Below, piece after piece: positions 1,072-63,824 of a stretch of DNA of 64,000 nucleotides (the first letter of the stretch is position 1; each line of letters opens with the position of its first letter). A program made the position numbers and the translations under genes. This DNA is from Macrostomum lignano. Lineage: Eukaryota. The stretch covers positions 50,320 through 114,319 of the forward strand of contig NIVC01003173.1 of assembly GCA_002269645.1 (NCBI GenBank), read 5' to 3'. The notes below the pieces were generated by a model. The model was not told the DNA's origin. It was given only the letters and a program-made list of their open reading frames with translations, and did not search any database.

Positions 1072-1104
<33 letters not shown>

Positions 1105-7904: not shown

Positions 7905-8150
7905 GGCCACGGCGACATTGTCCTCACGACCAGCGCTGAGGCAATTCTGCCAAGTCCGCTGACTCCTGAGCACACACCAGCGCGTCAATACTGCACACGC
8001 ATCCGCGTACTCAAACACACGCTCACACAGGGTGTACAGCGGCCCTGGCTTTCTAATCGGTCAGGCATGTACACCCTCTCTGTGCCTTGGGGGCTGGGCC
8101 TCGTGGGTGTGAATCGAACGACAATCCCCGGTCTGAAGTATTTTCCAGCA
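7905..8150 (-). mobile_element. SINE body, 5'-truncated copy of the family at 8250-8608 and 50540-50900
   Basis: Shares blocks such as gtgtacagcggccct, ggcatgtacac and gccttggggg with the other two copies. Confidence 0.65.
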
Positions 8151-8249
8151 GTGCATTTTCCCAAAAAGTGCTCAAATTCCAACGTAGCTATCTTGCTCAA
8201 AGCGGTAGAGCTCCTGTGCGTTTTGATCTTATTTAACCAATAATTTTTT

Positions 8250-8608
8250 TTATTAGAGGCAGGGGGGTTGTGTGCACCCTGGCGCACTTTAAGCGACATA
8301 GGCACACAACCGGCGAGAGGCATTGCTGCCCATTCCGCCGACTCCCCTGAGCAGGCATACAAAAAGCGCGCGGGTACGTACGCAGGCACACACTCACACA
8401 GGAGTGTACAGCGGCCCTAACTTTATTTCATCGTTAGGCATGTACACTTCACTGCGCCTTGGGGGGTTGGCTCTCAAGGCCATTAATTGCACGAGCAGAG
8501 CCAAGCCGAGATTCCAATTCAGCCCTAAATTAATGTGACTGCACTTGGAATTGAGCCTGGGTCGCTGGCACACCAGAGCCTGCGCTAGACCGCTGGGCTA
8601 CGGCCCCC
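8250..8608 (-). mobile_element. tRNA-derived SINE
   Basis: Minus strand starts ggggccgtagcccagcggtctagcgc (A-box-like), then ggctcaattcc (degenerate B box), then a body colinear with 50540-50900. Confidence 0.65.
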
Positions 8609-9227
8609 TCCGCCTGACTCTCAGAAAATAACTCCAATTTAGTCTTGAGCAGTTCCTATCTATTTTGGAAAACTCGCTACGAACGAAAAAGCAATGAACT
8701 TCTATCGATACGTAAATCCATCACATCGATGCCAAGATCTAAATAATTCTTCTTATGATTTTATTTCAGTCTCTCATCCGTAAAAAGCGTTCTGATAGAT
8801 AAATCATACTAAAATGACTGTCTTTCCTGGCTGCTCTTCCTTCTACGAGTAAGTTGGCATTACCGGTATTTCTGCAGATACTAGTAATTGAATTCTGTAA
8901 TTCACTACAGTCTTGGTAAAAACGTGCGGCACACATTAGTGAAAAAAACACGTCACTTACATTCGCAAGTGCTTACTTAGATTACCGCTACTAAGTAGCT
9001 TGGTTTGAATGACGACAACTTATCCAATTAATAACTTGTTACTGAGAGTATTGAAGATTTTTATCGTTATGAGTTGATCCAGCTTTTTTTCAGGCCAGTG
9101 AAAAAAAAATTACATAGAGTCACAAAATGATTTAACAGAACAGGAAATGTCAATGAGAGTGCATTAGTACTCGCAGGACATTCACAGGACCAAAAGTTGT
9201 GGCGGCGGGAAAGTCAGACGCGTTCAT

Positions 9228-9278
9228 CTTCTATCTATCTATAGAAGATAGATAGATAGATTGATTGATAGATAGATT

Positions 9279-9327
<49 letters not shown>
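9228..9327. repeat. GATA microsatellite
   Basis: TAGA/GATA run. Confidence 0.9.
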
Positions 9328-12600: not shown

Positions 12601-15600
12601 ACAATACAGATCTTGGCGGTATGATGGTGGTCCACTTAAAATTTGCATTTGCCTCCGAGTCTGAATAGTCTTGTGGGTCGACAAAAATTGAGTTCCATTC
12701 CAGATTCGATGGGGTACTATGTCTATTGGCATGGTCAGAAACCGTAATTGTAGCATTCTGTTGCTCCATTTCACTCTCTGCATAGATGTAGATACGGCCT
12801 CGATGGATCGGGTACTTCCAGACTCGAAGCATAGTTGCTAGCTGGGCGGTGTTGTTTAACACCCGAGCAATGCTGCCGTTCAGCGAACTGCACATTTTGA
12901 CAGCATCAGACGCACTCAAGTGTGTTACATTCGAAGCGGCGCTGACTATCATGTAGCAGTGATCGTCTAGCTCGTACCAGCCATCTCGGCACTCATGAGT
13001 TCGGCTTTGCATCATGCCAACCTGCTGCTGAAAATGCAGCCGATTTTTATCCACCTGAGCCGTGACGTTTGCTGGTTTCTCACAGATGTGCGACTGGCCA
13101 TGAATTTCCATGTTGCACGGCACCTGCACCCAGTTGCTGTGATGTCGAGGATTTTGAAGCATCATGCCAACGCAAAGGAAAGCGTTATAATAGTTCGGCT
13201 GGGGAAATTTCTCATGGACTACTGTGACAAGATTTCTTGGCACCTGAGAATACAAGCTGTCGTTGTGCGACGGATACCACTCCTGATAGGTGAAGGGCTC
13301 ACCGCTGCTCCAAATAAAGTCCTGAAATTTTTAATCAAAGAAAACTTTATTGACAGAAAAGCAAGGTGCGCCAAGGTACGCTTAACCAAATTTCAAAATT
13401 TGTCTGTCTGACTTACATGTACATTTCTGGAGACGTTCCTATTGGTTAACAACGTCCAGCAAGATGAACCGCCGGTCTGACTAATGGCACATTTCTGAGC
13501 AGAGAACGCGTGACTTTTTACCTGAAGGCCAATGTAGACGAACATTTCTTCGGATGAGTACACCGTCTCACGCCAGGAGTTGTTCTGCAGTATCAGTTCC
13601 ATTAAGTCCCGCATCTCGGCATGCGAGTTGATGCTCACAAGGTTACCGCCGAAAGATCGGCAGTTACTTTCAGCTCTGTCCCAAGAGATTGGCTCTGCAC
13701 TCTTAAACAATTTGTAGCACGAGTCTGACCGGTGATGCCAGTCTTCGGAACCAGGCACTGGGCAAGCGTCAGACGAGGGCTTTGACGATTGTTTTATTAG
13801 ACGAAATCGGATTGAGAACCCCTGGTATCGGGGCTGAAGGGAGGCCTTCATCGAGTTGTATGAAATCTTATTTGCCTGAAACATGATGTAGATCTCGTTT
13901 GACGAAAGCGTGTAAAGGTACGAGCCGCTGTGGCTTTTGCATTGGTTAAGCCGTGCTTGAACTCGAGCTGAGACGCGTTCCATTATAGTGAGAAAACTGT
14001 TCGAACAAATGTCCAAATCAAATGTACTGAATTTGAATGAATAGTAGCTGGATACGTTTACTGGACTGGTGTAGTTGAAAAACCACACTATTGGTTTTTC
14101 GTACTTTTCGTAGGGAAAAGGAAAACCTGGACTCTCGATGATGCCGCATTCTTGCTCTACGGTGCTCTGGAGTGGCCTACCGATAGTGCCAATGTCGTTG
14201 TATGGAATGCGAGCCCGACACTCTGACTCCAGGTGCAGGGTCCAGAAGGTCGCGCAGAAGTCGCAGTCGGACTGCAGTGTCACCTCCGTATAATAGCGCT
14301 CATTAGCATACCGACGACGAATTGAGACGACCGACTCGCAATTGAATTTTTTCATCAACGTTACTGTGCCATTTTCATGCTGCTCCGTTAGCGCCATCAG
14401 ATTCGAGCTAGTAAACTTTGAGAAAGCAAGGAGTGGCTCAGTAGTAGTGATCTCTACAGTCTTGTTTCGCTTGCTGGCCACCTGCACCTCCGAAATAATA
14501 CTCAAACATTCCTTGTAGTAAAACTCCTTGCGCGACTCAACTTCGCTGAGATCGATCATCTCGCACGGATAGGCGCCAATGCTATAGGTAAAGACATTTT
14601 CGCCCTGCCAGTCGTTGTCCTCAACATCCAGATCGTGGAAATAGTACAGCAAAAAGTACACCTCGCTCCCCTGGCTAAGAACAGACACAGGCAGCGAGCT
14701 GGCGGAACAGAATGGGCCAATTTTTTTCTCTCCGATTGTTAAAGCGTCACGTTTCACCACGAACAGGCCCGTTTTGTTGCAGCTCTCGTCGCTGTATTTT
14801 CTGTCAAGGTCAAACGATGTAATATTCCAATAAACATGGCTAATACCGTGAGTGCGAGGCGCGCCGATAAGCATTTGAGAAGTATGCAGCTGCATTGATA
14901 ATTTTTGCATGTGGTCGATTAGATCAGAGTTTTTCAAATAGAACTCAGCTCCCTTACTAACGGGCAAATCCAAGTGCCCAGCGTAAATTTCCAAGTCTTC
15001 TGTGAATACTTCCAAGCGCACCGACTTTTGAAGCTTGTCACCAAATGTAGCCACGTAGATCATCATCTCGAACGATTGGGTACTGATTGAGCCGGTCATT
15101 GTAACCGGGTCTAGAGGCACCGAATAGACATAACGTTCTTGAATGCCTAAAAGCTGTGACGGTGTTGTGCACAGGAACCTGTCAGAGAAGTAAACCATGG
15201 CTCCTGTTGATGTTGACACGGACGTTGTATTATCAAATAGTGATACAGTCACCGTCGCGCTGAGCCTTCTACCAACTTCGGTGCGAAATTTAAACTCGTA
15301 GAAAGTGACAACAATATCGTCGGTTTGTTTGAGAGAGTAGCTGCAGCGTTGGTTCGGCTCCATTTCGTGTACCAGGATGCTCAGCGGTCGCTCCTGCGCA
15401 TGGTAATAGTACGGCTGTCGTAGGGTTACCCAAAACCGTTCGTTAATGCTGAAGTACTGAAAACTGAAGATCCCAGTTAAACGACTAAGGTCGTTGACGT
15501 AACGCACTCGCACCTTGTTAGCATTGATAATAAACTCTGGCCCGCTTTGAATTCCGCACATCGCTTTCGTATTGCTCGCATTCTCCGGCGCGTAATCGAA

Positions 15601-17063
15601 TTCAAACTCCAGCCGGTCGTAGATGCAATTTGGTCCGGAATAGGGCAGACGAAATCGTTGAAATTCAATTCGAAGTACGTCGTCATGATTGACACCATTA
15701 ATAGTCACCACGCAATCGCTTGATGAATTGGTGTGCAAAGCGGTCACCTGCTGCGTGGTAGCTAGCATGTTGGGCTCGCCCTTGCACTCTAGTTTTATTG
15801 TTTCAGCCAACTGAGCCATGAAGCCCACTTTCTGAATCACGTGATCCGACACGAAGTTCAACCTGATACTGCCGGATTTACTAATGAAAGCAAAGTCGGA
15901 GCTGACGTTGATGTTGCCGCATCGATTGCCGCAGCATCGGACGCTGTAACTGGCATCGACAGCGTCCTCAATGATCAGATAGTCACGTATGCATCCTTCG
16001 GAATCTTCTATGTAGAATTTGCCAGAATTGAAGGTCAAAACTAGTTTTGAACCTGGCGTTACAGCTTTGATAACCTTCTGACAATGTCTGTTGGACGGAT
16101 AAAAGTTCAAATTTCCTGGATCGACTGGTGTCCGTAACAGCAGGCTAGAGTAGCTCGCGTCATCAGGAATAACGCACATATCGACGCTGGAAAATATGGT
16201 GATGCGTTTTACTGAGCTGCTGTTACAAGTACCACTCGCAACTTTCATAAGAAATCTAATGGTGACAAAGAATAAGCGAAAGCGCAATGCTACTTTTTAA
16301 ACTGCTATTTGTAAATTAAATCACATCAAATGGGGTTTTAATGTAAATAATAAATTTTCAAAATAGGAAGGAAATGTAACATTTCTTGATTTTTTGCTTT
16401 TTTGATCTCTATTAATATTCTGTAAACCCGTACAACATTTCGAAGTCCACCGACATTTCCGAAGAACCTGACGTTGATAGAAGTTGATGGCAAATGGACA
16501 CTGATTGCACACTATGCTGATGGATGCCAGCGTTAGCAATATTAAGACAAAGTTACTTTTATTTCGCAACTTACTTATCCTTTTCTCATCGGTTTTAGAT
16601 ACTTTTGACTAACGCCGCTTGACCATCTGCGTACCGACAAAGTACTCATTTGCCATTGCCGTCGAATTGTTGTACGAAAAATCTATGTCGATAAACTTCT
16701 GGTACCATATATTGGAACAACTACTTGAAGTAGAAAAAAACATTCTTTTGTCTTCATACAGCATGTATTAAGAAATTAACAGTTTTATAGCTTAAGTTAA
16801 AGTTCTTAAAAGAAAATTTATGTAAATTGCATGACAACTACGAATCACCCCTGTTGTTTTTGAGTGAAAAAATCCAGTAAAAATCAGTAAGACACTTACT
16901 GATCGTTCTTGCCGTCAATCAGTAGGCTACTAGAGCCATTAAACTGGTTGCCAAGCCAACGCAGTTCCTTGTCCAGCGCTTCAGAGTCCATAGTATCCAA
17001 TTTGGCTGCATTCATTAATGGTGCTTCTGGTAGTTGAAGAATCAGAAATAGTAAAATAAACAT
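9640..17063 (-). CDS. GRL101-like leucine-rich-repeat GPCR with CUB, C-type lectin and ~6 LDLa domains (multi-exon)
   Basis: 7TM in ORF 9640-12222 with the LERY motif (TM3) and NPTLNPYLY (TM7). It is preceded by LRRs, an LRRNT (CPEGCYC) and LDLa repeats (CDGTADCPGATDEADC). C-type lectin motifs (CYKLF..SWDRAESNC; WSSGEPFTYQEW) and CUB motifs (YPSNRHC..; GIIESPGFP) lie in 12485-16190. Splice phases checked compatible at the ~13525/13321, ~12485/12336 and ~12126/11994 junctions. The hydrophobic N-terminus MFILLFLILQL starts at 17063. The small 5' exons at 16.4-16.8 kb are only approximately resolved. Confidence 0.88.
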
Positions 17064-18056
17064 TTTCGCTGCTACGTCAATGCCTTTGAAGAGCATTTTT
17101 AGCTGCTCAAAATCAATTCACTGCGTCGAAACAGCTCAGTGATTTTCAACAGCCGCTTGTAGTTATAAATGGAACCAGAACTATACTATTTTGCATTTTG
17201 GTCACGCCTTGACGAAAGATATCAACTGATTATTTATCTTCCCTCCGAATGCATTCCACTGAAGCTCTCGTCTGGCATCCCGCTTCTGCATTGGCAAAGA
17301 AGGGTTTGAGCCGCGCTTATCGGCCAGAAACTGTGATTTCTGATAAAAACCAATTGCAAACCTTACAGTCAACTTCTTCCTGGGCCTGGAGTGGCCTTCT
17401 ATTCACGCTCTTTTATCAAAATTTGTTATACTCTGTTGCCACCATGTGCAAATACAAACCATAGCCGTTTAGTAGTTCTATTTTATCAAAGAAGCAACTA
17501 CTTCTTACTTTTCTACTTTAAGTAGCACTTCTCTCAAACATTGCTCTGTAAAGGAATTTAAAGACAAAGTTAAATTTACATCTAACTTGGAGAAAGTAAT
17601 TATCACGATAAATAATTTACAACTATCTGGCATATAAAAAGGTTATGCAAGTCCGTTGTGTCTTGTTCGAAAATGAACCAGGGAGCCGGAGCCAGAGACA
17701 GAAGCATGAAGTGAATGGGAATATCATCAAACCTATAATTTACGGATAAAAGTACTGACAGGCTATTGCAAATTGGGTTGGAAATTATTATAGCGTTTCG
17801 CAGACTAGCAAGGCTTGCTGTAACACGATTTAAATGTGTAAAGGCGTGCATTAAACGCTAAAAGCGTGCTTAAACGGCTCGTCATCGCGTATTCGCTAGA
17901 GTCATTTAATACACAAGAAATATATATCGGATTACATTAATACTCAAAAATTGTTTTTTTCTGGCTTCAATGTCTATGGTTCCAAAAGCACGGACAAACA
18001 GTGTAACTAGAGTACGCCCATAGACAGCATATAATTCATTCTAATCTAGTATAGTA

Positions 18057-18464
18057 TTTGTCATGCTATCTCAGCCTAGAGACATCCAAACTCAGCCAGC
18101 CCATCTCAACAGTGCGATTTTTTACGTAAGCCAGTCAAGTTTTACCATAGACATGCTTCTTAAGGCCATGCTATCTCAGCCTGGGACATGCAATCTCAGC
18201 CACTTTTCAGATTCTTACTGACTTTTCTTGCTGCGTTCATTCATTGCTGTTTGTTGCCATTTCATGTCACGTTACAGAAATGATAGCATTGAGATCTGTT
18301 TGCAATTGAAATCTATATTGGCTGAGATTGCATGTCCCAGGCTGAGATAGCATGGCCTTAAGAAGCATGTCTATGGTAAAACTCGACTAGCTCGAGCCAA
18401 AAAACGCATTGCGGAATGGGGCTGGCTGAGTTTGGATGTCCCTAGGCTGAGATAGCATGACAAA
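18057..18464. mobile_element. MITE/foldback element with 146 bp inverted arms
   Basis: Arms at 18057-18202 and 18319-18464; the inner ~63 bp are a perfect inverted repeat; spacer 116 bp; no TSD seen. Confidence 0.8.
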
Positions 18465-18469
18465 AGCTA

Positions 18470-18750
18470 TAACAACAACCACAACAACAACAATCAGGGT
18501 CTTTATCAGGGTCTCTAGAAGTCAGCGTCTTAGGGCACGCTTCTGGGCTTGCAAGAAGACCGCCGGCAGGGTGTCTGCAGCGTCAGTAACATGATATTTT
18601 GGCCTGCCAGCTGGAGTCGCCGACGGCACAACAGGTCGCTTGGACGGAACAGGCCAGCGCGACGATACAGTGTCGCATTGGTGACATGCTCGTCTTGTAA
18701 GAATCAGTTGGATCCTCTACGGGCTCACAATAGTCTATTCGCTGAATTTG
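18470..18750 (-). mobile_element. 3' fragment of a non-LTR retrotransposon (RT C-terminus) with a (TTG)n tail
   Basis: Minus-strand frame reads NRLL*AR..HVTNATLYRRAGLFRPSDLLCRRRLQLAG, resembling the HV.N..LY...RRRL.LAGH motif downstream of LINE RT domains (recalled); contains in-frame stops and a microsatellite tail. Confidence 0.65.
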
Positions 18751-26353: not shown

Positions 26354-28023
26354 ATGCCTAGCTGGAATCTAAAACTGTCGCTATGTTTTGGCCGTAGGCC
26401 CGATACGCGTATTAAAAAATCGAAAAACAAAACGATTGGAAAGACGCCAACAACCAAGACGGTTACAGCGACTGAAAACGCAACTACGAACTGTCCACAG
26501 TGTGGTTGCTCTCTAACGGAGCACCTGAACAGTTATCTGCAGCAGCAAAGTCAGCAGGATTGTACAGGAATTCCTATTAATCCTTGGTCGACGGTAAGAA
26601 TGCAGAAAAGTGTCGACTCTGGCATCTGCGAGGAGCTCAGCGGAGGTTCAGGCGAACGGGCAGGAAGTTCGGGTTGTCAACTGCCTGCTGCCGTTAATGT
26701 CGTCGACGAAGCGGATGCCGAATCTGACGCAGCCGCTGACCTGGAGGTCTCAAATATTGTTAATAGCAGTCGTCAGCAATTTCGTCAACGCCGTCCCGTT
26801 GTTGAAGGCGTCGCTCTGAGAGGCTTCGTGCCGCCGCCAGCAGCGAATAGTGGTTGGCACGCTTCGGCCACTCTGGCTACACTGCCGCGCGACTCGCCGA
26901 GTTCCAGCGTGGCTTGTCTGGCTCGGTCGGACAGTGACGACTCTGTGGACGAGCTCGACAAAGTATCGTCGGGACAGAGACAGGAGGTAAAGCACGATGA
27001 ACAACGGTCGAAAATGGGCAGGTGAGCAGTGTGAATGTCTTGTTGTTGCTTCTCCAGGCCTCGATAATGAAAAGCAGTCATGGCCATTCAGTTATAAGCA
27101 GACAGACGCACACAGGGTACGCTATCGCTAAACCATAGACATCTGCACCGATGCAAGTGCAAATAAGCTAAATCTAATGCTAAACCATAGACATCTGCAC
27201 CGGTACAAGTGCAAATAAGTAAAATATAATGCTAAACCATAGACATCTGCACCGATGCAAGTGCAAATAAGCTAAATCTAATGCTAAACCATAGCCATCT
27301 GCACCGGTACAAGTGCAAATAAGTAAAATATAATGCTAAACCATAGACATCTGCACCGATGCAAGTGCAAATAAGCTAAATCTAATGCTAAACCATAGAC
27401 ATCTGCACCGGTACAAGTGCAAATAAGCAAAATATAATGCTAAACCATAGACATCTGCACCGGTACAAGTGCAAATAAGCAAAATCTAATGCTAAGCCAT
27501 AGACATTTGCAACAGTTCAAGAAAGCATCTGATGATAATGCTATCTTTCTTGGTTGCAGAAATATTAATAGATGAGAAATAGGCTCAAAGTCTTAGACGA
27601 TTAATACTTTCTAAAAAACTGGTCAAATAGAGAACCGTATTATTTCTAATGTTATTTCTATTGTTACGAGTATTTCTAATGTCTAAGGCACTGACCACAT
27701 TTTATTAATATTGGGCCGTACTTAATAAATGAAATTAAAAGCCAAACCAAGAAACGTGACTTTCTTCTTTTAACCCATGAAGTTATTCTAGACCGCAAAG
27801 CAGATGGACCGTCCATCAGCAACAGCAGAAGCAACAGCAGCAGCATCAGCAATATCACCAGCTGTTGCGCGAACAGAAGCGAACAGCACTGCTTTGGGCG
27901 ATGGCTTCTGTCAGGGACCGGCTGGAGAAGGAGATGGAGCGGCTGCTGGAGGCAACCGCCGACGACCTCGTCGCCATTGGCAACGAAAACGAATCCAGCT
28001 GGTTTTTAACCAACTTCGACTGA
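26354..28023 (+). CDS. Two-exon orphan protein (~299 aa): acidic/Ser-rich, then poly-Q and a short helical C-terminus
   Basis: Exon 1 26354-27021 ends AG|GTGAGC (phase 2). Exon 2 starts after ttattctag at 27792 and reads in frame PQSRWTVHQQQQKQQQQHQQYHQLLREQKRTALLWAMASVRDRLEKEMERLL...NFD*. TATA-like motifs lie at ~26222 and ~26268. No family recognised. Confidence 0.55.
27127..27510. repeat. 52 bp intronic tandem repeat with alternating A/B variants (~7 copies)
   Basis: gctaaaccatagacatctgcaccgatgcaagtgcaaataagctaaatctaat alternates with ...ccggtacaagtgcaaataagtaaaatataat. Confidence 0.92.
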
Positions 28024-28823
28024 CTGATTCTATGAAAGTTTCTGCTTTGATTTTTTGACTGAATTTATTTAGAATTAATAAAATTATAATTGTCAAAAAA
28101 ACGTTCTATTTCACAAATATTTATTCATCAACTTTTTTGCAAACTTGTCAATAATCTCATTATATTATGATGAATTTTTTTGTTTTAATTTTCAGAAAAA
28201 TTTTTTGCACCTATAGTGATCCACCAACTATCTGCCTGTGCTTACTGCTGTAAATATTGTTGAATTCACAGTCAATATCTAGCTAGATATTTGTAATAGC
28301 TGTTTATTTACTGTTTCGCTGCTTTAATGTCTGTATTTCAAAACTTAAATGCACTTTTTTCGACAAACTTTTCAGTTAGAAAGATGCTTTTATTCTAATA
28401 GTCTGTCTTTCTAAATATTCGATATTTCGTGAAAAAAAAACTGTTTTCGATGATTTAGATTTGCTAAATTTCATTACTAACAATGTTTTTTTCTGAAAAT
28501 CAGTAAATACATATTTAACAAGACTTTCATGCATTAACTTCATTATGAGAGGAAACTTCATCGAGAAATTTTATCTGAACGATTAATCTTTGAAAGACGA
28601 TATATTGCTCCAATTGCAGTACAAGACAAACATATTTTGGTAGAGACCACTTGGGATTATGCGCTTTGTACTAATACGTGTAACTGGCTGCTTATATACA
28701 TGTACATGTATACTCTGACAATAACATGTTTTATATCCGGCATTCTCGTTGTCCAGTTCGAGCCGGCCTCTCTCCGCTGCAGTCACTACGTATCGTGCAG
28801 AAACTGCAGGGTTTTCAGAATTC

Positions 28824-29210
28824 TGACGCAAAAAACGCAAATTAGACTACTATCTGAAAATGAAGTAAGTAGTATATGAAAACGCTATCCTAAGCGTGAT
28901 ATACATGGCAATATGTAGTCGTAATAATCCATGTGCTCATATATGTACATTAATTCCATGTACATTAATCCCTATCTATCTCAAATTGGATATGTACATT
29001 AATCCCATGTACATTAATCCCTATCTATCTCAAATGTCCATGTCTATCCCCAATTCTATATGTACGCTGTATGTGCATTAATCTACATGTACAGTGTCAT
29101 CCCCAGACGGCCCGCGCGCGCGCACCAAAATTACAACTCGAAACCCTACTACATGTACAGTTGTACAATCTCATCCAAATGAGTCAACTAATTGTGTAGC
29201 TCACAACGTA
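28824..29210 (+). repeat. Left inverted repeat (putative TIR), 387 bp
   Basis: Reverse complement of 40435-40809; manual alignment gives ~11 substitutions plus 4 bp and 8 bp indels (~97%). Confidence 0.93.
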
Positions 29211-30229
29211 AATGTATATTTCCAAGGTACATTCTCAGACAGATTTGAATAATACTGGTCGGAGTCTATATGTACATCGATAGCCTCTATACTCATATCC
29301 GCTACATACCCCAAAAATTAGGTATGTACATTTTCACCCTCGGAGACTGTAGGTTTGAATATGCTGATAATTTATTCAAAATCACTTATAAAATACACAT
29401 ACTTTCATATAGAGGCGGGCCTGTACAAACTCTCGCCAAGCGATGGGGTGGAGGTTGCGTCATCCAAGCCTCTCCCCAAGCCAGACCCCAAATGCAGGAC
29501 TGTGTTGAAGCAGTGCTTTATATTTCTATATTGACAGTGCGGATGATACAAGACGCTTCGTCACGCTTTAATTGGTAATTATCAACTGCTACTGCTGTAC
29601 GGTATATCCTCACCCCTCGAAGCTCCTATACTGAATGTTGAATCACCCTTTAACTCGGACCATAGTCAAAATTCAACCCAAGACTGTTCGAAAACAGCCA
29701 CCCCTCCGATGTTCACCAGACTCGTCTTCACAGCGCAGACCCCATAGCAAATCGAACTAAATTTTAACACTCGCCCCTGTTCTCTCTGTCCCCCTTCTAA
29801 ATGCCAAGGAATTTCGACCCTCTCTCCATTTTCAGTGTACAGACAGATCTATCCACAGCACAGACCCTATATCAAACTTCATTCAGCAAAACCCCTCTCT
29901 TCTCCGATTACGTCATCCATACCCCTATAGAAGCAGTTAGCAAGAAACCAACTTTTAATGCACACATCAACCCCACGAATCTGAGCAAATCCGAGTCCGC
30001 CAACCTCTACCTGCATTGACAAATCCCAGCTGCATTTGTAGATGTACACAGCCTATGAATCAGTGTCTCCACCGCATGCAATTCTGATTTACTTGATCCT
30101 AAACTTTGTAAATTGTATAAGTTACCCTTGCGTTATACTAGAAGTAGTGAAGTCCACATATTTAAATACGTGAGGCTATTCAATTCTGCCTCTCCGCCTC
30201 CCCATGCCTTCTCACTTCAAGCTTTCAGA

Positions 30230-31202
30230 CTTGGTCTTTGAGATGGTCGGTTTAATCTGTTAGAAGCAGGAATGAATCATGCACTGACCTCTCCATACAA
30301 AGTAAAGTTGGAATTTCAAACAAGAAATTTGGTTATTTTGAAAGCTAAATGACTAGAAAAGCACATTTTTCATTAAAATGCAGCTTTTCACAGTTTTTTT
30401 TACGATTTTAACCTTGAAATGCAGACTTTGTTGATCAAAATCAGTAGTTTCATCACTAGAAACCATACTTTCAACAGCTAATTTGTCCAAATGTCGTTTT
30501 CAACTTGACCTTAGACAGCTTTTAAGCAGGAATGAACCCCAAACAAACATCCACAAGCCAGCCCAAATCATCCAAAGACATGGCTGTTGAAGCCTAAATT
30601 GCTAGAAATGCGCATTTTTTCATAAGAAAATACAAATTTTCACAGTTTTTTATGCATTTTTACGTTAAAATGCAGACTTTATTGATCAAAATCAGTAGTT
30701 TCATCACTGGAAACCATAATTTCAACAGCTAATGTGTCCAAATGTCGTTTACAACTTGACCTTAGACGGCTTCGAAGCAGGAATGAATCCCGCACGAACA
30801 TCCACAAGCCAGCCCAGAATCAACCAAAGACGGCTATTGAAGCCTAAATTTGTATAGAAATGAGCATTTTTTCATAAGAAAATACAATTTTTCACAGTTT
30901 TTACGCATTTTTTACGTTAAAACGCAGACTTTGTTGATCAAAATCAGTAGTTTCATCACTGGAAACTTCAACAGTTAATTTTCCCAAATGCCGTTTCAAC
31001 TTTACTTGAGACGGCTTCGAAGCAGGAATAAATCCCACACGGAAGTCCACAAGCCAGCCCAGCCCAAGAAATAGTTAATGGAGGCTAAATTACTAGTAAT
31101 GCAATTTTTTTCATGAAAAACACGAGTTTTCCTCATTTTTCGATTTTTACCGTTAAAATGCTTACTTTATGGATCGAAATCTGCCATTTTATCAATAGAA
31201 AT
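30230..31202. repeat. ~250 bp diverged tandem repeat (~4-5 copies; last copy resumes at 33408 after the LTR-like insertion)
   Basis: The landmark gatcaaaatcagtagtttcatcact recurs at 30433, 30684, 30936 and (diverged) 31172. Confidence 0.88.
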
Positions 31203-33407
31203 TGATGTAACCGCCTTGTCGCCGGTCCGCTCCGTTGAGAGACGAACGCATGACTAGAGGGGGCAATGACCGTAGGCTGCCTATGACCGGGCAATGGCCT
31301 GACGGACCTCCAGCACCAGACTGTCCCGCCCACATGATTGATAGCTTTGGTAGCGCTTCGTGACCAGAGGGCCAAGGACCCACATGGACCCCACCTGTAG
31401 CCAAGGTGCAATAGTTGGTCACTCGGTCATAGTATGACCGAGTGGCTGCCACCACTCTATGTGACCTGGCGCACCTGGATCTTTCTACCAGACCTCTCGA
31501 GGCTAGAGCCCCGCCTGGGATGGTTACCAGGAGATTTAGGCTAACAGGGGAGACACATGCAGCCGAGTACAGGGACTCTGCTTGGGGCATGATCGGGAAC
31601 TCTGGGCTCAACCTGGAGGATTTCTCAGCAGGGGATCCTTTGTGGCTGTGAGCGAGGCTAACTTGCGACTTTGATTACTAAGAGTAGTATGAGACGAACA
31701 TGTACTGTCTATAGTTTAGATTGCTCAGGGCGAAGGGACGCGTCAGCATGGGGTTGCAACCTTCCTACTGCCATTCTGTGCCAAGACTCGCTAATCCCTC
31801 TACTGCACGCACACGCGGCCCCGCAGCACGCACTCACAGGCGGGCTGTGCACGGGGAGAGGCGATTAGCTTACCCAAACTTCCTTATGCTTTGCCACCCC
31901 GGGAGAAAGGCTTAGCAAGCCATGAGAGAAATGATGGTGAAAGAGGGAATAATTAGTTAGTTAGTTAATAGTTAATAATTAGGCCCTTAAACGAATAATC
32001 AGGCAATTAGACGGCTTCACTATTGAGTAAAATACAGCAAAAGGTTACGGTATCACAATTGGCTCAGCTCTCTAATCAGACAATGGAAAAATAGGCAAAC
32101 CCCGGATAAGCAAGGCGATTAGAGCACAAATTAGTAACAGGAACTTACCGGCAGCTGCACAGAGAGAGAGAGAGGCGGAGTGACCGAGGGCGGCTGTAGG
32201 CTGCAGTCAGGCAGACGGTGAAGCGGCGATGCGCTGAAGCGACGAGGCGCTGATGTAGATCAGGCGATGCTGATGATGCTGGGCGGTTTCAGACCGCTGG
32301 CCGATAGGCGAGCTCACTTGGGGAGCTAAGGATAACTTGGCGGTAACAGACCGCGGACCGGCAGGGATTCGTCTTATAGACGAATGGGTCAGAACTCAGT
32401 CTGACAGCAAGTCCAAAGAAGGACGAGGAGCCGAAAAGGTGAGGATTCTCATGCCGAAATCGCTTCCTTTTATAGACCTCACTGCCGCCTCCTCAAGGTC
32501 GTTACCATGGCTCCCTCTCTCTGATTGGCTGCCGGCAGAATGACGTCAGAATGAGTCATGATGAGAAGCATGAGACCGGCATAGCAACATGAGAAATCGG
32601 GAAATTGCGCAATCCGGAGGTGGGGTGGGGGGATAATTGGCGCAGCGGGTGGTCGCGAAAGTGTTGCGCAAGCAAACATTGAGAACAATAGGGCTGGGGT
32701 CGAGAACAAAGGAATTGGAAGTCGGGGATAATTGGGGAGAATCGAGAACAATAGAAAAGCAAACATTGGGGAAAAGGTGATAATTAGGTGCGAAAACGAG
32801 AACAAAAGAAAGAGAAAATCGGAGAAAATGTGATAATTGGTGGGGGTCGAGAGAACAAAAGAATCAAAAACGAGAACAATAGAAGCGGAGGTGGGGTGGG
32901 TGTCGCATGAGAAATTTGGGAAGGAGAACAATAGCGTGAGAAAAGGTTGCGCAAGAGAGGGGGATGAGTCATCGATGAGTCACCGAGGGGGAGAAGGGGT
33001 CACACGACTTGCGTCACCGTTTGGGAGTTTGGGAGGGGATGGGGAGACGGTGAGCACACAAAATACTGTAAGTAGACACAGGGAAAGGGGGGACAGCGCA
33101 GGAAAAGAGTGCAGAGGGAGACAAAAAGAGGGGGGATAGGGAAAGTACGGGAAGAATAGGGCGGAAAACAGAAGAGATAGGGTAGAGGGGGAGATACAGA
33201 GAGGGGTGGGGAGCTCCGGAAAGGCAGGTGTGGCGGCAGGGGAGACGGAACCAAGGCAGCGGGAGGGGTGCAGCAGAGCGGGAGTCTCCAGGCCTGGTCG
33301 GAGACCTGGCCGAGTCTCGACAGCTCTGTGCAGGGGGTGCACGGGATAGGAGGCACTTTCGAAAAAGTTCCCATGCCCTATCCCGCGACCAGAGCGTGGT
33401 TACATCA
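31203..33407 (-). mobile_element. Solo LTR-like insertion, 2205 bp
   Basis: Ends TGATGTAACC...GGTTACATCA (10 bp perfect inverted termini, TG..CA); 4 bp TSD AAAT at 31199-31202 and 33408-33411; minus-strand promoter cassette inside; no coding domain seen. Confidence 0.78.
32467..32560 (-). promoter_or_regulatory. Pol II promoter cassette in the LTR-like element
   Basis: Minus-strand TATAAAAG (32467-32474), CCAAT box (32521-32530), CRE TGACGTCA (32541-32548) and AP-1 TGAGTCA (32552-32558) in canonical order. Confidence 0.65.
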
Positions 33408-34505
33408 AAATCATAATTTCAGCTAATAAACCATCAAAAATGCTGTTTTGTCATTCAAATAGGCATGTACATTGTCCAAGAAGCTGGGGAAATATTCTAT
33501 AGACACTGTAAAAATTGGGGCTAAAAACACAGTCTGCTATTACCCTATTAAACTTAAAGTTTTCAGAATTCAATTGATTTCGATTACTACATCATGCCAT
33601 TGATGCTATTTTAAACGTTATTCTCAGTTCTGAAGCTCACAACAGCCTCTTTTAGATGCACTGAATCGGTTTTGTTGCATACTTTGCATGTTGATTCACC
33701 CTTCAATTCAACGATTCTCCGCTATACATTCTAGCCATATTCAAAATTCAACCCAGGACTATTAATGTTCGCCAATATGGAGAGAACAACACCTACCCAA
33801 GCCTCACCAAGGCAATTCTTTACTACCGCGTAAATGCCATAACTGACTCTCTGTCCCTATAACCCCAGGTCCATCCCTAAACATTACGTAAACAGAAGTA
33901 GAAAACTCTGTCTCTGATTTGGCTTGCGACAGGGGCTGTCACCTTTATTACTCTTTGATGGATATTTTAGATGATGGCAAGAGCTTTTCATCGACTATTA
34001 CTCTTCCCGAGCCTCTGTCAATCGGATGCTTTGCACACAAGCCCCATTTCACCCAGGTTATTAAATTGATACAGCGATTTTTAACAACCATTTTCTCGCA
34101 GAGACCGGCGGGCCTTAAAAACCACAGAAGTCATCTTTCATATTTTTCATCTGTATTTAGCTATTATTGGTCCGCCAAGGTATTGTCTTTTGAATAAACA
34201 CCGTTTTCTATCCGATTTAAGTCGAAAAGACATGCTGCAAGAGGAAGCTGTCTTCTTCTTTGAGAGACTGTACTCTGGCGGAGCAGCAGTTTTCACTCCT
34301 GCGAGAATGCTGGTTGGGTGGCTCCGCTCAGATCCAATAAAATACCGCATGAGAAAAGAATTGGTGGGGTATTTTCGACCCCCAACTTTTCTATACCAAA
34401 TGCGGAACCGTGTGTACAATCGTACACTAATCTAGAAAATATAGACCCGGGAAAGAAAATCACGCACACCTCTCGTGCCCCTACCCCATCCTCCCTCTCG
34501 CGGGG

Positions 34506-34513
34506 TATATAAA
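34506..34513 (+). promoter_or_regulatory. TATA box upstream of the pPolB gene
   Basis: TATATAAA after a GC-rich stretch, ~280 bp before the first ATG (34787). Confidence 0.55.
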
Positions 34514-34786
34514 GCGGGTGAGAGCTGCTGCAGCAGCATCAGCAAAAGCAGCCAGCAGCAGCAGAAGCCACAACAGCAGCATCAACTGCTTCAACAGCAT
34601 CAGCCTGCAACAGCGGCAACACAGCAGCAGCATCAGCACAGCTAGCAGCAGAAGAAGCAACAACAGCAGAAGTCACAACATCAGCAAACGGCAGCAGCAT
34701 CAGAAACCGCAAGCATCAGCAGTCACAGTCGCAATCACAGCAGCATCAGCCGCAATCGCAGCAGCAACAGCAGCAGCAGCAGAAGC

Positions 34787-34852
34787 ATGGCATCAAAACG
34801 TTCGGCCGCTGAAGCAGCAATTTCAGCCTTGTGGGGGCGAGCAGGCCCCCCA

Positions 34853-34893
<41 letters not shown>

Positions 34894-37800
34894 TCAGCCT
34901 CACCATCAACCTTCTTCGCAGGCTGGGGCGCATCTAGCGCCCCCGTCCCTTGCAGCCCAGCTGACATCGAGACGTGCGGTGCAGAGAGAGAGAGAGAGCA
35001 TCAGCCTCCGGCCGCAAAGAGGGGACGCCCGCTAGGTGAGTCTCTGCGTGTGTAAAACTATATGCTTTTAGCATTTGCAAAATCTGAATTCAGAAAAATA
35101 GGGCTGTATAATTGCTTTAGCATTTGTGTGATTTGCAAATTTTTTCGCTAGTTGAAATATGGGCTTTCTTTGAAACCACAGCTTTTCATCTTTAGCATTC
35201 ATTTTGGCTTAAAATTTCTGAATTTCCTCTTGACATAGATGTTGAAGTAAAGGGAGGAACTGGATTTCTCAAATTCAGGCCTGTTGAAATAACAGAGTTT
35301 TAGAGAATATCCGCAGCAGCAGTATAGCCGGATAATGCCTGTAGAGGATAGTCATAAAATTTCAGGGGTTATGTGACTAATCCTTGAACTAGAGAGAAGC
35401 AAAAACAGCAATCCTGCGGCGAGCGCGAACGTGACTCAGCGGGGGGCGGGCCGGTATTCTGGCGGCAGTGATAAAATCAACCCCCCGATTTTTGGGCTCA
35501 GCATGATGATGTAATCACCGCTGCAGTTGACAGTAGGGGTTTTGGCAGCAATAAAACTTGGCTGCTACAGTGAGGGTTATTAATCAGACATTTATGACAG
35601 CTTTAAGAATCCAAAAGCGGCGCGCGGTGTTGTTGCTAGGTGTCAAGGAGGCACAATGGAGGCACGTGCTGATAGGTGGTTTTCTTAAATTATACAATGT
35701 CTGCTGCGGCAGGATCAGTGTTATCATGGTCATCAATCAAACATTTTTGACAGCCTAAAATTCGAAGCGGGGGTCAATCAACCCCACATTTCTTTTGTTG
35801 CTACGTGTCGGAACGTGTCGAGTTGGGGTTTTTACAACTCACCGATTTTTGTTGCTTGGGGTGGGACGATAAAATTGCTGCTGCTGCAGGCAATCAATCA
35901 AAAATTTTTGACAGTTGTAAAATTCCAAGCGGTCAGAATTTTAGTCACCATGCGCATTTTATTGCAGATTTGGCTCAATTTCAACCCCCGCCCCAGCCCG
36001 ACACTGTCGAAGGCGATGGTAAGGAGTTGATTTTATTTCATGAGTCATACACCCACCGCCTCTCGCAATTCTAATTTCAAAACCCTAAAATTTTTCAGGC
36101 TTCATTGCGCGTCTTGGCGGGGCGAAAACCCTGCCTAAATTTAAAGCTAAGGGGGTAGAATATGTGGTATCGTTCACCCCAGTATCGTCATCGTCCACTG
36201 ACATTCGAGCCATATTCGCCGAATTAATCTCTGTGCTCTGCAGTGACCTGCACGCAAATGATTTTGTTTCGGCCAAGTTGATTGCCGACAACATGATGTT
36301 GACGGTTAATGTTCCGCCCGTCCGCCGCAGCCGCTTCACTGCAGAGCTTGTTTTCAAGCATATAAACAAGGTTCTGCAGTCGGACTCCAGTGTCTTGGGC
36401 AACAACTTTAAATTGTTTTTGCTCAAGGCCTGGGTCCCGCGGGGCGGCTGCGGCAGCCTGGATGCGGAGGAAAAACACATCCAGGCTCGCCATTCAATTG
36501 GGCGCAACTATGTCGTCATCGCCAACCGCGACAAGCGGTGCCTCATCCGGGCGCTAGTGGTGGCCAAGGCCTTTGCCGATCTGGAGGCCAAGGCCATTAC
36601 TAGACAGGCTTGGCGGACCATCAAGGCTGACTCCCCAATGCAGAAGAAGCTGACTGGGGAGCTTCAGATTGCCGCCAAATTGTATTCGGTGAGTAAAAAA
36701 TATTCTTGCACATTTTAATTTGCATTTTTATTAATATACAAATGTTTTAGTCTTTATCAACCATTGCACAGGCCGGGCCTTTCGGGGTTGACGTGCTCCC
36801 CCAACTGCTCGCAGTCCTGAACGCCCAGTACACCCTGCCTGGCAGCACAGTGCTCAATCTACACCTAATTGGCGACCACTTTAACGCGGTGTGCAAGGTG
36901 CCGCCATTTTTCGGAGCCCGCCGCTACTGTGACCGCTGCCAGCAGGCGTACGACTGCAAGTCTAGAGAGCACAAGTGTGCCGACACCTGCCCTCAATGCA
37001 AAGTGCCTGGCGCCAATTGCAAGAACCTGCAGCGTGACTACAAACGCTGCCCAGACTGCGGTTAAAATGCTATAACAGGCAGTGCTTCAAGAACCACCGC
37101 CAAAAGAACCGGGCCGGCAGGTCGCGCTGCGACTCCACCCGTGTATGCGCTAATTGCGGGTATTGCGAAGAACTAAAAGCCGGCCAGAAGGAGCCGGAGC
37201 ACAAATGCGGCCTCGTCAAGTGCCCGCTGTGTAAACAGTACGACGAGGCCGGCTCGCATTTGTGCTTCGTCAAGGCTCCCAAAGTGAAAGCTTCAACTAT
37301 GCCGTACGTGTTCTACGATACGGAAACGTACACGGATGATGAGAAGCAGCATCACGTGCATCTGGTGACTGCCGTCACGTGTTGCGAGACCTGTTCCGGC
37401 CGGGCATTTCCGCGCGAGACTTGCCACCTCTGCAATGGCCTGCATAGCACTGCCAATTGTCTGACTGGCCGCGATCTGGGGAAGGAATTCTCCAATTGCG
37501 TCAGCCACTCAGACTGCGCCTGCCAAATGGCCGATTTTGTGGCTGTGGGCCCGGCCTCGCTGAATGCTTTTTTCGCCTGGCTAAGCACCACATTCCGAGG
37601 CGGCGCCATTGTTGTTGCGCATAATGCATCAGGCTACGATTCGTTTTTATTGCTTGGCGCTCTACTCAACGGCCTGGCCAAGAAGCGGCCCCAAGTACTG
37701 TTCCAGGGCAGCCGGCTAATGAGCATGACGGTTGATAAATTGGTATTTAAAGATTCGCTAAATTTTATACCAATCCCGCTTGCGCAATTCCCCAAAGCTC

Positions 37801-40092
37801 TGGGGCTCGAGGACACAAAGCTGGCCAAGGGGACATTTCCCCACGAGTTCAACAAGCCGGCTAATTGGAACTACGTTGGCCCCTACCCGACTATTGATTA
37901 TTATGGCGGCAAGACAAACAACGATTACGGCTCCATCTGTGCTTGGCTGGCCTCGCGACAGGGCGAGTTGTTCAACTTTAATCGGGAATATCTCGATTAT
38001 TGTTTGAGCGACACAGTCCTGCTTCGCGAGGGCTGCATCAAGTACAGGGCAATAATTGGTGAAATTTGCGACGGCCTGGAACCATTTGTACAGGCCAACA
38101 CGATTGCCAGTTTGGCAATGGCCGTTTTCACCACCCGGTTTATGGAGCCCAACTCGGTCGGCGTGATTGCCAGGCAGGCCGACCAGCAATCGTTCAAGGC
38201 GCGCAAGTGGCTGACTTATTTGAATGCCACCGAATTTGGCGGGCGACTGCGAACCTGCGACTCGACTGACGGCGGCGAGGCTGTCATTCTCGGCCGCAAG
38301 GTGGACGGCTTTGATGAGGCCAGCAACACTGTTTTGCAGTTTCATGGCTGTTTCTACCATGGCTGCGAGCAGTGTATGCCCGATCAGGATGCTGTCCACC
38401 CGCTCAAACGGCAGCCTCTGAGCCACATCCGCCACGAGACTGAGTGGTTCACTCGCGAGTTGGAGCGGCACAATTACAGTGTTCGAGTCATTTGGGAGCA
38501 CGAATACGACACTGTATTGGCATCGCAGGCCGATTTCATTGCCGCAACTGCACATCTGCGCGCTCCGCTCAAGATGGAGGATGCGCTCTACGGCGGCCGC
38601 GTAGAGTGTTTTATCCCGCATGCTGTGGCCAGTGAGACTGAGACTCTCAAATATCGGGATGTGGTGAGTAGTAGTGATACTACTAATATAGTAGAATATT
38701 TTGCAAAAATACAGTTTATCAAAAATAATGTTTTATTTCAACTGGCAAGTCTCTCTGTACCCGACGGTGCAGTCGAAAGACCCGTACCCGATTGGCCACC
38801 CGGTGAACCACTTGACGCCGCAAGTGCTCGATTCTGACGCGCTGGCCAGCTACTTTGGCATTGCCAAAGTGACAGTGCTGCCGCCGTCAAACTTGCATAT
38901 TCCGCTGCTGCCCTACAAGGTGCAAAAGAAGCTCTTTTTTGGGCTTTGCCGCACCTGTATGGAGCAGCAGTGCAGCGGCTGCTGCGACCACTCAGACGAG
39001 GAGCGGGCGCTGACTGGCACCTAGGCCACGCCGGAGCTGCGAAAGGCGTTCCAGTTGGGCTACCGGCTGCAGGTGGTGCATGCGCTGGCCTACTGGACAG
39101 AGCAGCGGACGGGCCTGTTCAGTGACTATGTCAGCACCTTCCTCAAATTGAAGGCCGAGTCGAGCGGCTCCCCTGGCATGTCGGATGAAGACAAGGCCGC
39201 CTACATTGCCGATTTTTACGCCAAGGAAGGCGTCACGCTGGACAAGGTCGAGCCCAACCCAGGACTTCGCTTTGTAGCGAAAATCTTTTTGAATTCGTAA
39301 GTATTCATGAATCTTGTTTTTAAACGATTTCTTCTTCTACTAACAGTAGCTTTTCTTTACACGCAGGCTCTGTGGTAAATTTTGTCAGCGTGACGACCTG
39401 ACATCGACAGAAATTGTATCCAGCTACGAGGACTGGCTCGCCCGGCTGACCGACCCCAACCTCAAAGTCAAGGCCTGCGAACCGATTGGCAGCGAGTTTA
39501 TGCTGCTGGAGTACCGGCACCGCTACTTTAATCAGCGGCCGTTCCGCTACTCCAACGTGCCAATCGGGGTTTTTACAACCACGCAGGCCCGGCTGCGCCT
39601 GTACGAGGCATTGGAGGGGCTCGGCGAACGGGCCATTTACTGCGACACTGACTCGTAAGTATTGCTCTTTTAGAATTGATTACATGTAAATAGTTAGCAA
39701 TTATCTCGTTTTTCTCTCTCCCCCACACACAGGGTCGTTTACCGGCATTCGAATGTGGAATGTGGACCGATGAGGTGCCTGCAGGCAGCCGGATGACCGA
39801 CTTTGTAAGTGGAGGGCCAAAGCTCTACACTTACATTGTTGAGGATGCGGCCAGTGTCCGGAGCCAGGTCTTGAAATGCAAGGGCATTCGCCTGACTCCG
39901 GAGATTCGGGAGCGTAGCGACGACATGCGCAATGCCCTGCTGCACGGTGGCTCTCTGCAGCTGCCGCAGTTTCAGTTCAGGCGCGACAAGGCGTCTTGTA
40001 CCATACAAACTGTTAGTATGGACAAGACGTTTCAGCGCGTCCTGACAAAACGTGTGTACGGGGCCGGCAGCCGACCTTATGGCTATAAATAA
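34787..40092 (+). pseudogene. Protein-primed family B DNA polymerase (DNA_pol_B_2 type), six exons, disrupted in this copy
   Basis: Exons ~34787-35035, 36099-36688, 36772-38663, 38749-39296, 39367-39654 and 39733-40092. Motifs: ExoI FYDTET, ExoII AHNASGYD, ExoIII YCLSD, PolA YRDV|VSLYP, PolB KIFLNS|LCGKF, PolC YCDTDS, then GPKLY and KCKG. Multiple CxxC fingers precede ExoI. Lesions: 1 nt frameshifts at ~34835 and ~37063, CAA instead of CAG at acceptor 38748, TAG at 39022 in place of the W of TGTW, and a frameshifting deletion at ~39755. AATAAA at ~40113. Confidence 0.9.
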
Positions 40093-40434
40093 TGTGGTCT
40101 TTGCGACTAACTAATAAATGTCTTGTTAAATTTGACAGAGTAAAATCTATTTATTGTTGTACATATTTTGCATGTTAAATTAATGAAGAGTTACAGACTA
40201 CTATACAAATGTACATAAAGCATTTTTTTATTGTATACAGCGAAATTGCCAATGTAAAAATCTATTGTACATATTTTGCGTGTCAAACTTGTTTAAAATC
40301 ATTTAGAAGAGAAAATTATTGAAAAACAATGTAAAATTTTCTGTATATTGTATTTGCTGGTAATGTTGTACATAAAATATTTCCTGTAATATGCTACTGA
40401 TTTAATGTAAATATATATTTGTAAATAGTTTATA

Positions 40435-40809
40435 TACGATGTGAGCTGTACAATTAGTTGACTCATTTGGATGAGATTGTACATGTAGTAGGGTTTCGAG
40501 TTGTAATCTTGGTGCGCGCGCGCGGGCCGTCTGGGGATGACACTGTACATGTAGATTAATGCACATACTGCGTACACATAGAATTGGGGATAGACATGGA
40601 CAATTGAGATAGATAGGGATTAATGTACATGGGATTAATGTACATATCCATTTTGAGATAGATAGGGATTAATGTACACGGAATTAATGTACATATATGA
40701 GTACATGGATTATTACGACTACATATTGCCATATCACGCTTAGGATAGCGTTTTCATATACTACTTACTTCATTTTCAGATAGTAGTATAATTTGCGTTT
40801 TTTGCGTCA
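40435..40809 (-). repeat. Right inverted repeat (putative TIR), 375 bp
   Basis: Reverse complement of 28824-29210. Confidence 0.93.
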
Positions 40810-40850
40810 AAACATCGGAAAATCAACCGTTAAAGGCGCGATACGTAGTC

Positions 40851-41150
40851 GTGACCTAAATCTGTATCTGGGGGGCCGTGACCTAAATCTGTATCTGGGG
40901 GGCCGTGACCTAAATCTGTATCTGGGGGGGGGTCGTGACCTAAATCGGTATCCAAGCTTGGTCATGACCAATTATGAATCAGTTTCCGGGGTCATGACCA
41001 ATTATAAATCAGTATCCGTGGTCGACGTCATGACCAATTATAAATGAGTATCCGTGGTCATGACCAATTATATAATCTATTCTGACCTAAATCATTAATC
41101 ATTTAGTCATGACCTAAATCAGAAGCTAGCTAGCTGGGGTCATGACCTAT
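40851..41150. repeat. Short tandem arrays abutting the right inverted repeat
   Basis: 27 bp gtgacctaaatctgtatctggggggcc x3, then ~30 bp gtcatgaccaattataaatcagtatccgtg x~4, then decayed copies. Confidence 0.85.
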
Positions 41151-41367
41151 AAATCAATATCGGGGACAATTTTATGCATGTGCATGTAATTGATTTTCTG
41201 ATTCTGCACCTACATATGTAAATCAGTACCTGGGACAAGTCGCTTGTGGAGCTGCATGTACATTAAACGTCAGAATTAATTGGTACATGTTAAAAACATA
41301 CGGTACATGTATTTACAGCTGCCAATGCACGCACTAACAATCCCACGCCGACACAGTTGCTGACGCC

Positions 41368-63824
<22,457 letters not shown>

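Follow-up and report, generated by a model that had tools for sequence, protein, structure and literature searches.

An element bounded by inverted repeats

The stretch of DNA analysed here, referred to as the window, covers 64,000 nucleotides of contig NIVC01003173.1 (positions 50,320 to 114,319, forward strand) in the Macrostomum lignano assembly GCA_002269645.1, and contains an element in which a gene for a family B DNA polymerase with protein priming (pPolB) is enclosed by terminal inverted repeats (TIRs; Table 1). From tip to tip the element measures 12,065 bp, in agreement with the approximately 12 kb given in a preliminary description made from the sequence alone. Its TIRs, of ~430 bp each, lie inside the range of 100-1,500 bp for Polintons/Mavericks. 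By blastn, 28812-29225 and 40822-40419 are 92.3% identical over 416 columns, and no third copy of the repeat is found in the 64-kb window (word size 7, E 0.1). Within the repeat core (28821-29213 and 40432-40812), 368 of 393 columns are identical (93.6% with gaps), or 368 of 381 aligned bases without gaps (96.6%), which upholds the inverted repeats of ~380 bp and ~97% identity that were first described. Outside this core, identity between the arms drops to 12 of 26 columns before all 11 positions of the tips (28785-28795 and 40839-40849) match again. The left repeat includes a 49-bp duplication. The right copy starts 340 bp past the polymerase stop codon, and the outer left repeat matches a peptide of a sister gene model, P0014 (13 of 16 residues, E 0.037).

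Short repeated end motifs, either (AGT)2//(ACT)2 or (AG)3//(CT)3, are reported for Mavericks in the available text of PMC8097293. One of these, AGTAGT, is present at 28868 in the left repeat. It forms a symmetric end motif with 40765, 83 bp inward of the outermost tips that match, whose first bases are ACTACG. A pair of ACTACT and AGTAGT, facing one another with 16 bp in between, lies within each repeat (28846-28873; 40760-40787), with a 9-bp hairpin on the right arm. This inner motif pair equals the reported Maverick end motif, yet the repeat extends 47 bp further (45/47 identity).

Table 1 Features of the element (coordinates counted from the first base of the window)
Feature	Coordinates	Strand	Remarks
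Left terminal inverted repeat	28785..29213	+	11-bp tip, 25 bp diverged, then core ~96% identical to right arm
Inverted, decayed remnant of last polymerase exon	29524..29625	-	Mirror position: 311 bp inside left repeat, against 409 bp on the right
251-bp tandem repeat	30338..31202		~3.5 units, 74-87% identical; last unit interrupted by nested insertion
Nested solo-LTR-like insertion	31203..33407		2,205 bp; TG...CA ends, perfect 10-bp terminal inverted repeat, 4-bp target duplication
Unique interior DNA	33434..34519		Short open reading frames 33892-34197 and 34085-34435, without family match
CAG-rich (Q/S/A) tract	34520..35037	+	Weakly related to low-complexity segments of sister gene models
Polymerase gene (spliced, broken)	35950..40092	+	PF03175
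Intron 1 (predicted)	36019..36098	+	80 nt, GT-AG
Intron 2 (predicted)	36689..36750	+	62 nt, GT-AG, 19% GC
Intron 3 (predicted)	38664..38748	+	85 nt, GT donor, acceptor defective here; homologue residues contiguous across
Intron 4 (predicted)	39297..39366	+	70 nt, GT-AG, within polymerase motif B
Intron 5 (predicted)	39655..39732	+	78 nt, GT-AG, directly after motif C
Right terminal inverted repeat	40432..40849	-	Adjoins 27-bp tandem array beginning at 40850

The polymerase and its relatives in M. lignano

The enzyme is a protein-primed family B polymerase, as first claimed, although its gene is not one open reading frame (ORF) but spliced and broken. Its predicted domain order (terminal-protein-like, vOTU-like Cys/His, Cys-rich region, exonuclease, VSR-like insert and palm) agrees with that given in the accessible part of PMC11161782. 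The candidate vOTU-type Cys and His are kept in at least 90% of aligned homologues (sets of 100 and 54) and are present in the window copy; a polymerase with such candidate N-terminal OTU-type residues would fit the Alpha/group-2 adintovirus PolB class as described in the accessible part of PMC8502044. The VSR-like motif is found in the window polymerase along with a weak endonuclease match. Fold comparisons used the predicted structure of a sister protein, P0002 (mean pLDDT 74), which resembles phi29 polymerase (E 1e-8; Z 16.4, root-mean-square deviation 3.5 over 392 residues) and finds adintovirus PolB as its first-ranking match in BFVD (E 7.5e-20). The whole-model search returned no OTU or terminal-protein fold and barely covered those parts of the protein.

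A search with the large exon gave M. lignano gene models as the 22 best of 35 matches (21 so named), and all 45 matches of a second search came from M. lignano. In total 64 gene models were collected, 17 of subfamily A and 47 of subfamily B with ~57% identity between the subfamilies; as these are gene predictions, some of which may be redundant, their number is no copy count. Five fragments (P0078, P0079, P0147, P0161, P0180) and P0015 were placed by identity, not by name. In a FastTree phylogeny of 132 rows, a check that the preliminary description had proposed, A and B form one clade with a Shimodaira-Hasegawa support of 100 and a stem branch of 1.09; the tree includes no other polymerase groups as an outgroup, and its connection with the nearest rows is flagged as long-branch. 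Other homologues are 27-42% identical, with Nematostella, Branchiostoma, Apostichopus and Oculina among those named (27-36%). Among 20 top or GC-rich homologues, an origin in M. lignano was found only for two, both already in A/B, so this set contained no recognised polymerase of the integrase-linked families published for the host.

A scan of bacterial and archaeal genomes with the polymerase alignment yielded a single locus (L001) from 160 pattern matches and is uninformative on the M. lignano family. This locus (227-9290 of a 9.5-kb contig in a Flavobacteriales-titled metagenome-assembled genome) is a distant polinton-like element with a polymerase of the eukaryotic polinton-like type, an A32 ATPase and a protein resembling a capsid (weak match), and the contig is probably a mis-binned viral one.

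Predicted introns in the polymerase gene

Five AT-rich segments (62-85 nt; 19-35% GC compared to 54-59% in the exons) split the polymerase gene and are predicted to be introns of the spliceosomal type. All five have a GT donor and four have an AG acceptor. Distant homologues with a single ORF are contiguous across introns 3 and 4, for example P0080 at residues 831/833 and 1019/1021. The donor of intron 3 and the acceptor of intron 5 are also used in models of subfamily B, and this sharing of splice sites among gene models suggests that introns 3-5 at least are older than the split between A and B. Twenty of 46 B matches skip to a downstream exon past the motif-A donor, 13 have the last acceptor joined to a different donor or read in a different frame, and the B model P0015 reads through intron 4.

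In the available texts, introns are reported to be absent from the core genes of intact vertebrate Mavericks (PMC8097293) and of nematode Mavericks (10.1101/2022.07.12.499685), while dinoflagellate maverick-polinton-like elements contain introners that were mostly reported as acquired after integration (PMC11957031). On spliceosomal introns, the accessible portions of PMC12220804 and PMC11131425 add nothing. No earlier report of a spliced animal Polinton polymerase was found in a literature search that did not extend to subscription journals, Repbase or bioRxiv supplements, nor was any paper found on Polintons/Mavericks in Macrostomum, where earlier annotation is possible outside the literature covered. 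Counting against a unique case in M. lignano, several homologues (P0024-P0034) end near the same position before motif A or have their VSR motif interrupted by an intron-like insert, a hint that elements of other animals contain introns too.

Decay of the window copy

Compared with its sisters, the window polymerase has frame breaks near 35958, 37060 and 39750 and an in-frame gap of ~19 codons near 36829. With a premature stop at 39022 and a third intron that has no usable acceptor, there are six breaks in all. One or two of the single-base frame breaks could be assembly errors, an explanation that is unlikely for the larger gaps and the stop at 39022. Judged by its reading frame, the window copy of the polymerase is a pseudogene and therefore cannot support self-synthesis, so the proposal of a minimal self-synthesising element fails for this copy.

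A trace of a second polymerase end lies inside the left arm (Table 1), and a weaker colinear piece of this remnant may reach ~29727. The remnant matches the last exon at 37 of 50 bases, a score equalled in 0 of 100 and 0 of 200 shuffles. Its frameshift-aware score is 68, compared to 34+/-4 for shuffles (maximum 51, n=60), and is the best of 222 non-polymerase segments of the window. Of 14 differences over 51 bases, 9 fall at third codon positions; with a profile hidden Markov model the match is weak (independent E-value ~2). The remnant points to an old inverted duplication or a chimera. The segment 33408-34530 was rejected as a second polymerase remnant, as 63 of 100 shuffles scored as high and, in a second comparison, it reached 30 against a shuffle mean of 34.

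Search for further genes in the interior

Outside the polymerase, unique DNA amounts to only three stretches of 1.0-1.1 kb each. Another of the proposed checks, a search of the interior with domain models, was run against Pfam on the six frames of 27001-41700 read through stops; only PF03175 (DNA_pol_B_2) scored above the cut-off, and two low-complexity matches fell under their curated cut-offs. Neither this search nor ORF scans nor a codon model found an rve integrase inside this copy, and the read-through search found no gene for a packaging ATPase, a protease, or a major or minor capsid protein. None of 10 non-polymerase ORFs from the interior and flanks matched PHROGs, and the short interior ORFs had no match in Pfam, PHROGs or Atlas apart from one DUF match below the cut-off. 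For the ORF at 34085-34432 Atlas gave nothing usable, and Rfam gave no match. The codon model flagged 2 of 58 windows of 150 bp, of which the nested insertion and the CAG-rich tract hold one each. A frameshift-aware search of low power with the distant ATPase and capsid of L001 scored 31-50 (best control 40), with its top match in the CAG-rich tract. As the three unique stretches are without coding signal, integrase and virion genes are truly absent from this copy and not merely concealed by introns, which confirms the absence of integrase, capsid, ATPase and protease noted earlier. The accompanying statement that the interior holds only short unassignable ORFs is correct insofar as none has a family match, but it is weak as an argument because the genes of this family have introns.

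The CAG-rich tract scores 54 against low-complexity segments of sister models (controls up to 40), and a peptide resembling its product can be seen by eye in P0016. The nested insertion has no recognisable coding domain and would be a solo long terminal repeat (LTR), judging by its ends and target duplication. Long paralogy between two unique interior segments was rejected (108.5 against a shuffle maximum of 131); all that remains of it is a 29-bp internal duplication (90%; 29660-29688 and 33735-33763) flanking the 251-bp array.

A PC4-like gene in sister copies

The gene model P0014 consists, in order, of sense polymerase, antisense polymerase, a PC4 domain, ~400 unassigned residues, the peptide matching the left tip, and polymerase again. 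Its PC4 domain scores slightly under the curated cut-off (E 2e-4; Atlas lead 0.88), and the B model P0247 carries a PC4-like segment that is 43% identical to it. In B models the peptide upstream of the polymerase is the antisense of a PC4-like gene, with 121 of 123 positions compatible, and stands directly upstream of the polymerase in 14 of 47 models. When antisense matches were compared with shuffles, five of six B targets scored above all 60 (up to 132 against maxima of 40-50), as did none of four A targets; for the antisense peptide, scores of 129-132 stand against maxima of 48-50. No trace of the gene is found in the window interior (scores of 28-39, controls 29-42). Five A models have the window's own 200 bp upstream of the polymerase, so an A lineage without PC4 is possible. 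The PC4 region of P0014 was searched for among shorter proteins with 0 of 3,773 candidates, and its unknown ORF (residues 951-1040) had an antisense match in 0 of 30 target/register pairs. PC4-like genes may occur in Polintons, for which literature searches gave no support. In P0014, P0075 and P0247, PC4-like and low-complexity segments occur both in the direction of the polymerase and against it, which suggests that copies lie head to head, or that internal inversions took place, in the two subfamilies.

Probable conventional Polintons in the host

A further M. lignano assembly, GCA_001188465.1, is presumably ML2. The assembly used here, GCA_002269645.1, is Mlig_3_7 (PMC10733133). Supplementary Table 3 of PMC10748475, in its available form and counted at two occurrences per row, lists 78 integrase-linked polymerase rows for Mlig_3_7 and 175 for GCA_001188465.1, obtained with a method that demanded a polymerase ORF of at least 900 aa. 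In 70 of the Mlig_3_7 rows the integrase lies 4-8 kb downstream (34 rows), 8-12 kb downstream (8), at most 1.2 kb upstream (10) or elsewhere (18), and part of the ML2 rows looked alike in this respect. Some of these published integrase matches may be retrotransposons. Conventional Polintons or helpers probably exist in M. lignano. Orthopolintovirales insertions in Rhabditophora were noted, with introns ignored, in the accessible part of 10.1101/2025.04.19.649669.

Origin of the element

With moderate confidence, we interpret the element as a dead, internally deleted or rearranged copy of an undescribed, intron-bearing Polinton/Maverick family of the Alpha-adintovirus type, whose intact members would integrate via an rve integrase. 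The PF03175 polymerase with its candidate vOTU-type Cys/His, the fold matches, the multicopy clade, a PC4-like gene in sisters and not here, the six breaks and the 78 integrase-linked rows argue for this. The deleted Polinton, one of two alternatives raised in the preliminary description, is favoured: sister models carry the PC4-like gene, and the window interior lacks it. As this copy has no detectable integrase, target-site duplication (TSD) or capsid gene, it is classified as Polinton-derived and defective-Polinton-like, not as an intact member.

By analogy with the known family, the host would transcribe and splice the polymerase of intact members, and the terminal-protein domain of the polymerase would prime synthesis at the repeat tips. 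The PC4-like single-stranded-DNA-binding protein, encoded by a head-to-head gene, could aid strand displacement, and a retroviral-type integrase, supplied in cis or by co-resident Polintons, would insert the linear copy. The window copy may then have lost the PC4 gene and all beyond it, either through internal deletion or through a fold-back that duplicated the polymerase end, before gaining the solo-LTR-like insertion, accumulating disabling mutations and losing its TSD through flank rearrangement. We infer the integrase and capsid genes of intact members, the role of PC4 and this order of events.

Several observations weigh against such an origin. No direct repeat of at least 4 bp is present at any of four candidate end pairs, and across 70 x 80 end positions a scan found 4-6-mers only, none of them at a complementary terminus of more than 4 bases, so the lack of a TSD reported from the first inspection stands. 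The tips are also without the reported (AGT)2 or (AG)3 motifs. Pfam domains of integrase, ATPase, protease and capsid occur in none of the 64 models, which cover one strand only, and host exons lie on either side of the polymerase in the B models P0011 and P0242, which hold nothing further on that strand. In addition, the arms are ~96% identical while the adjoining remnant is 74% identical, which suggests that the polymerase-ended layout was copied over a long time and not deleted once. Lastly, given the required ORF of at least 900 aa, the published integrase-linked entries are probably other, intronless families not tied to the A/B family, and are thus possible helpers and no proof of a parent.

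Perhaps, though we consider it distinctly less probable, the whole family is without capsid and integrase and constitutes a replicon in the nucleus that resembles a linear plasmid and is made up of repeats, a spliced polymerase, a PC4-like gene and one or two small genes; this copy would be a decayed member of it. At the level of the family the minimal element would then survive, albeit tentatively, with integration left to host repair or to an integrase supplied by co-resident Polintons. The 64 models without a single integrase or virion domain would be in line with this, as would introns kept over a divergence to ~57% identity, as expected for a long-term nuclear resident, and the long stem branch without a close relative. 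Candidate helpers are present in the host, a TSD is absent, and there is a precedent in cytoplasmic linear plasmids, which arose from Polintons by losing the morphogenetic module according to the available text of PMC11161782. However, the PC4-like gene shows that genes lie opposite to the polymerase, where an integrase or capsid would stay invisible in one-stranded models. The window copy also lacks even PC4 and is hence a derivative in any case, and with flanks unrelated to each other the missing TSD tells little. A more specific and similarly doubtful version would be an old, twice-amplified, self-synthesising family that replicates in the nucleus as linear DNA, frequently in the form of inverted dimers, and borrows its integrase from conventional Polintons. 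If true, fungal linear plasmids would have a counterpart in animal nuclei, unseen by surveys for long ORFs or capsid genes.

It is improbable, and partly compatible with an internally deleted Polinton, that both ends represent one polymerase-proximal end twice, in a defective molecule formed by fold-back (snap-back) or in a chimera joining two adjacent insertions of opposite orientation, with the missing genes on the half that was never included. The inverted remnant at the mirror position, the differing outer arm columns (12/26), the unrelated flanks and the absent TSD are consistent with this, and the simplest reading of P0014 and P0247 is that of neighbouring copies in inverted orientation. 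Yet the remnant is much more diverged than the repeats (74% against 96%) and has weak profile support, and the left-tip peptide of P0014 comes after PC4, as it would at a true left end. That the repeats are an unrelated dispersed repeat lying by chance around an orphan polymerase pseudogene is very improbable despite the absent TSD and non-canonical tips, as the right copy starts so close behind the stop codon, a model from another locus that contains the polymerase has the left-tip sequence too, no third copy is present in the 64 kb, and the mirror remnant links the left arm to the polymerase.

Comparison with known systems

Taken as a defective member of a Polinton/Maverick family, the element resembles group-2 Polintons/Mavericks, the Alpha adintovirus PolB class, in its TIRs of a length within 100-1,500 bp, PF03175 and candidate N-terminal OTU-type Cys/His (PMC8502044; PMC10748475; PMC8097293, as far as available). 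The VSR-like insert is a further likeness, as it is found in mollusc and marine-nematode pPolB2. At 12 kb (9.9 kb without the insertion) the element is shorter than the 13-25 kb of group-2 Polintons, and it differs from them in having no integrase, ATPase, protease, capsid or TSD and a pseudogene polymerase with five predicted introns. According to the accessible text of PMC8097293, 96% of vertebrate Mavericks are degraded, and the stops, frameshifts, nested insertions and lost TSDs of those elements are seen here as well. Unlike such damage, the predicted introns are family-wide and common to two subfamilies, and would not have arisen after insertion. Cytoplasmic linear plasmids likewise have TIRs and, as predicted here, a polymerase of terminal-protein, vOTU, exonuclease and palm parts without a virion module; they are extrachromosomal, cytoplasmic and encode their own transcription genes, whereas the element is chromosomal and would depend on the nuclear spliceosome. 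Introns inside Polinton-like elements are shared with the introner-invaded elements of dinoflagellates (PMC11957031, available text), from which the present case differs by short GT-AG introns at common positions in two ~57%-identical subfamilies.

While the copy itself is a fossil of an ordinary kind, what appears to be new is a family with predicted spliceosomal introns in its replicase that were kept through divergence and amplification. Surveys that call for a polymerase ORF of 900 aa or more (PMC10748475) or for capsid and ATPase genes (PMC11131425) would miss such elements, as would a survey made without regard to introns (10.1101/2025.04.19.649669), going by the accessible parts of these sources. 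The picture of Polintons as intronless and always capsid-coding may therefore be partly an effect of ascertainment. A model animal for which long-read assemblies exist offers a direct test of whether there is a virion-free Polinton lineage, living as a pure transposon or as a plasmid.

Surroundings of the element

The element sits between two host genes. On its left, a CUB / C-lectin / LDLa / LRR / 7TM receptor gene occupies 9643-16296 (-), and on its right a large multi-exon gene with laminin N, laminin EGF, laminin G, many FN3 and galaxin-like repeats (41368-61497, -), which we take to be usherin-like, ends ~500 bp from the element. A scan of 60 ORFs revealed no Polinton gene in the rest of the window; for the flanks it took 44 of 125 long ORFs, omitting tandem-repeat and overlapping frames. 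A short Q-rich ORF with a protein-like tail (27781-28023, +) lies in the left flank and has no family match. Exactly from the right tip, tandem units of 27 bp and 30-36 bp extend over 40850-41170, with no counterpart in the left flank, and are possibly the end of another element. Further out, the window contains a 420-bp imperfect palindrome (18050-18471), a 200-bp dispersed repeat in two inverted copies (7933-8131 and 50638-50838, 81%) and, over its whole length, more than 20 minisatellite arrays whose periods range from 4 to 104 bp.

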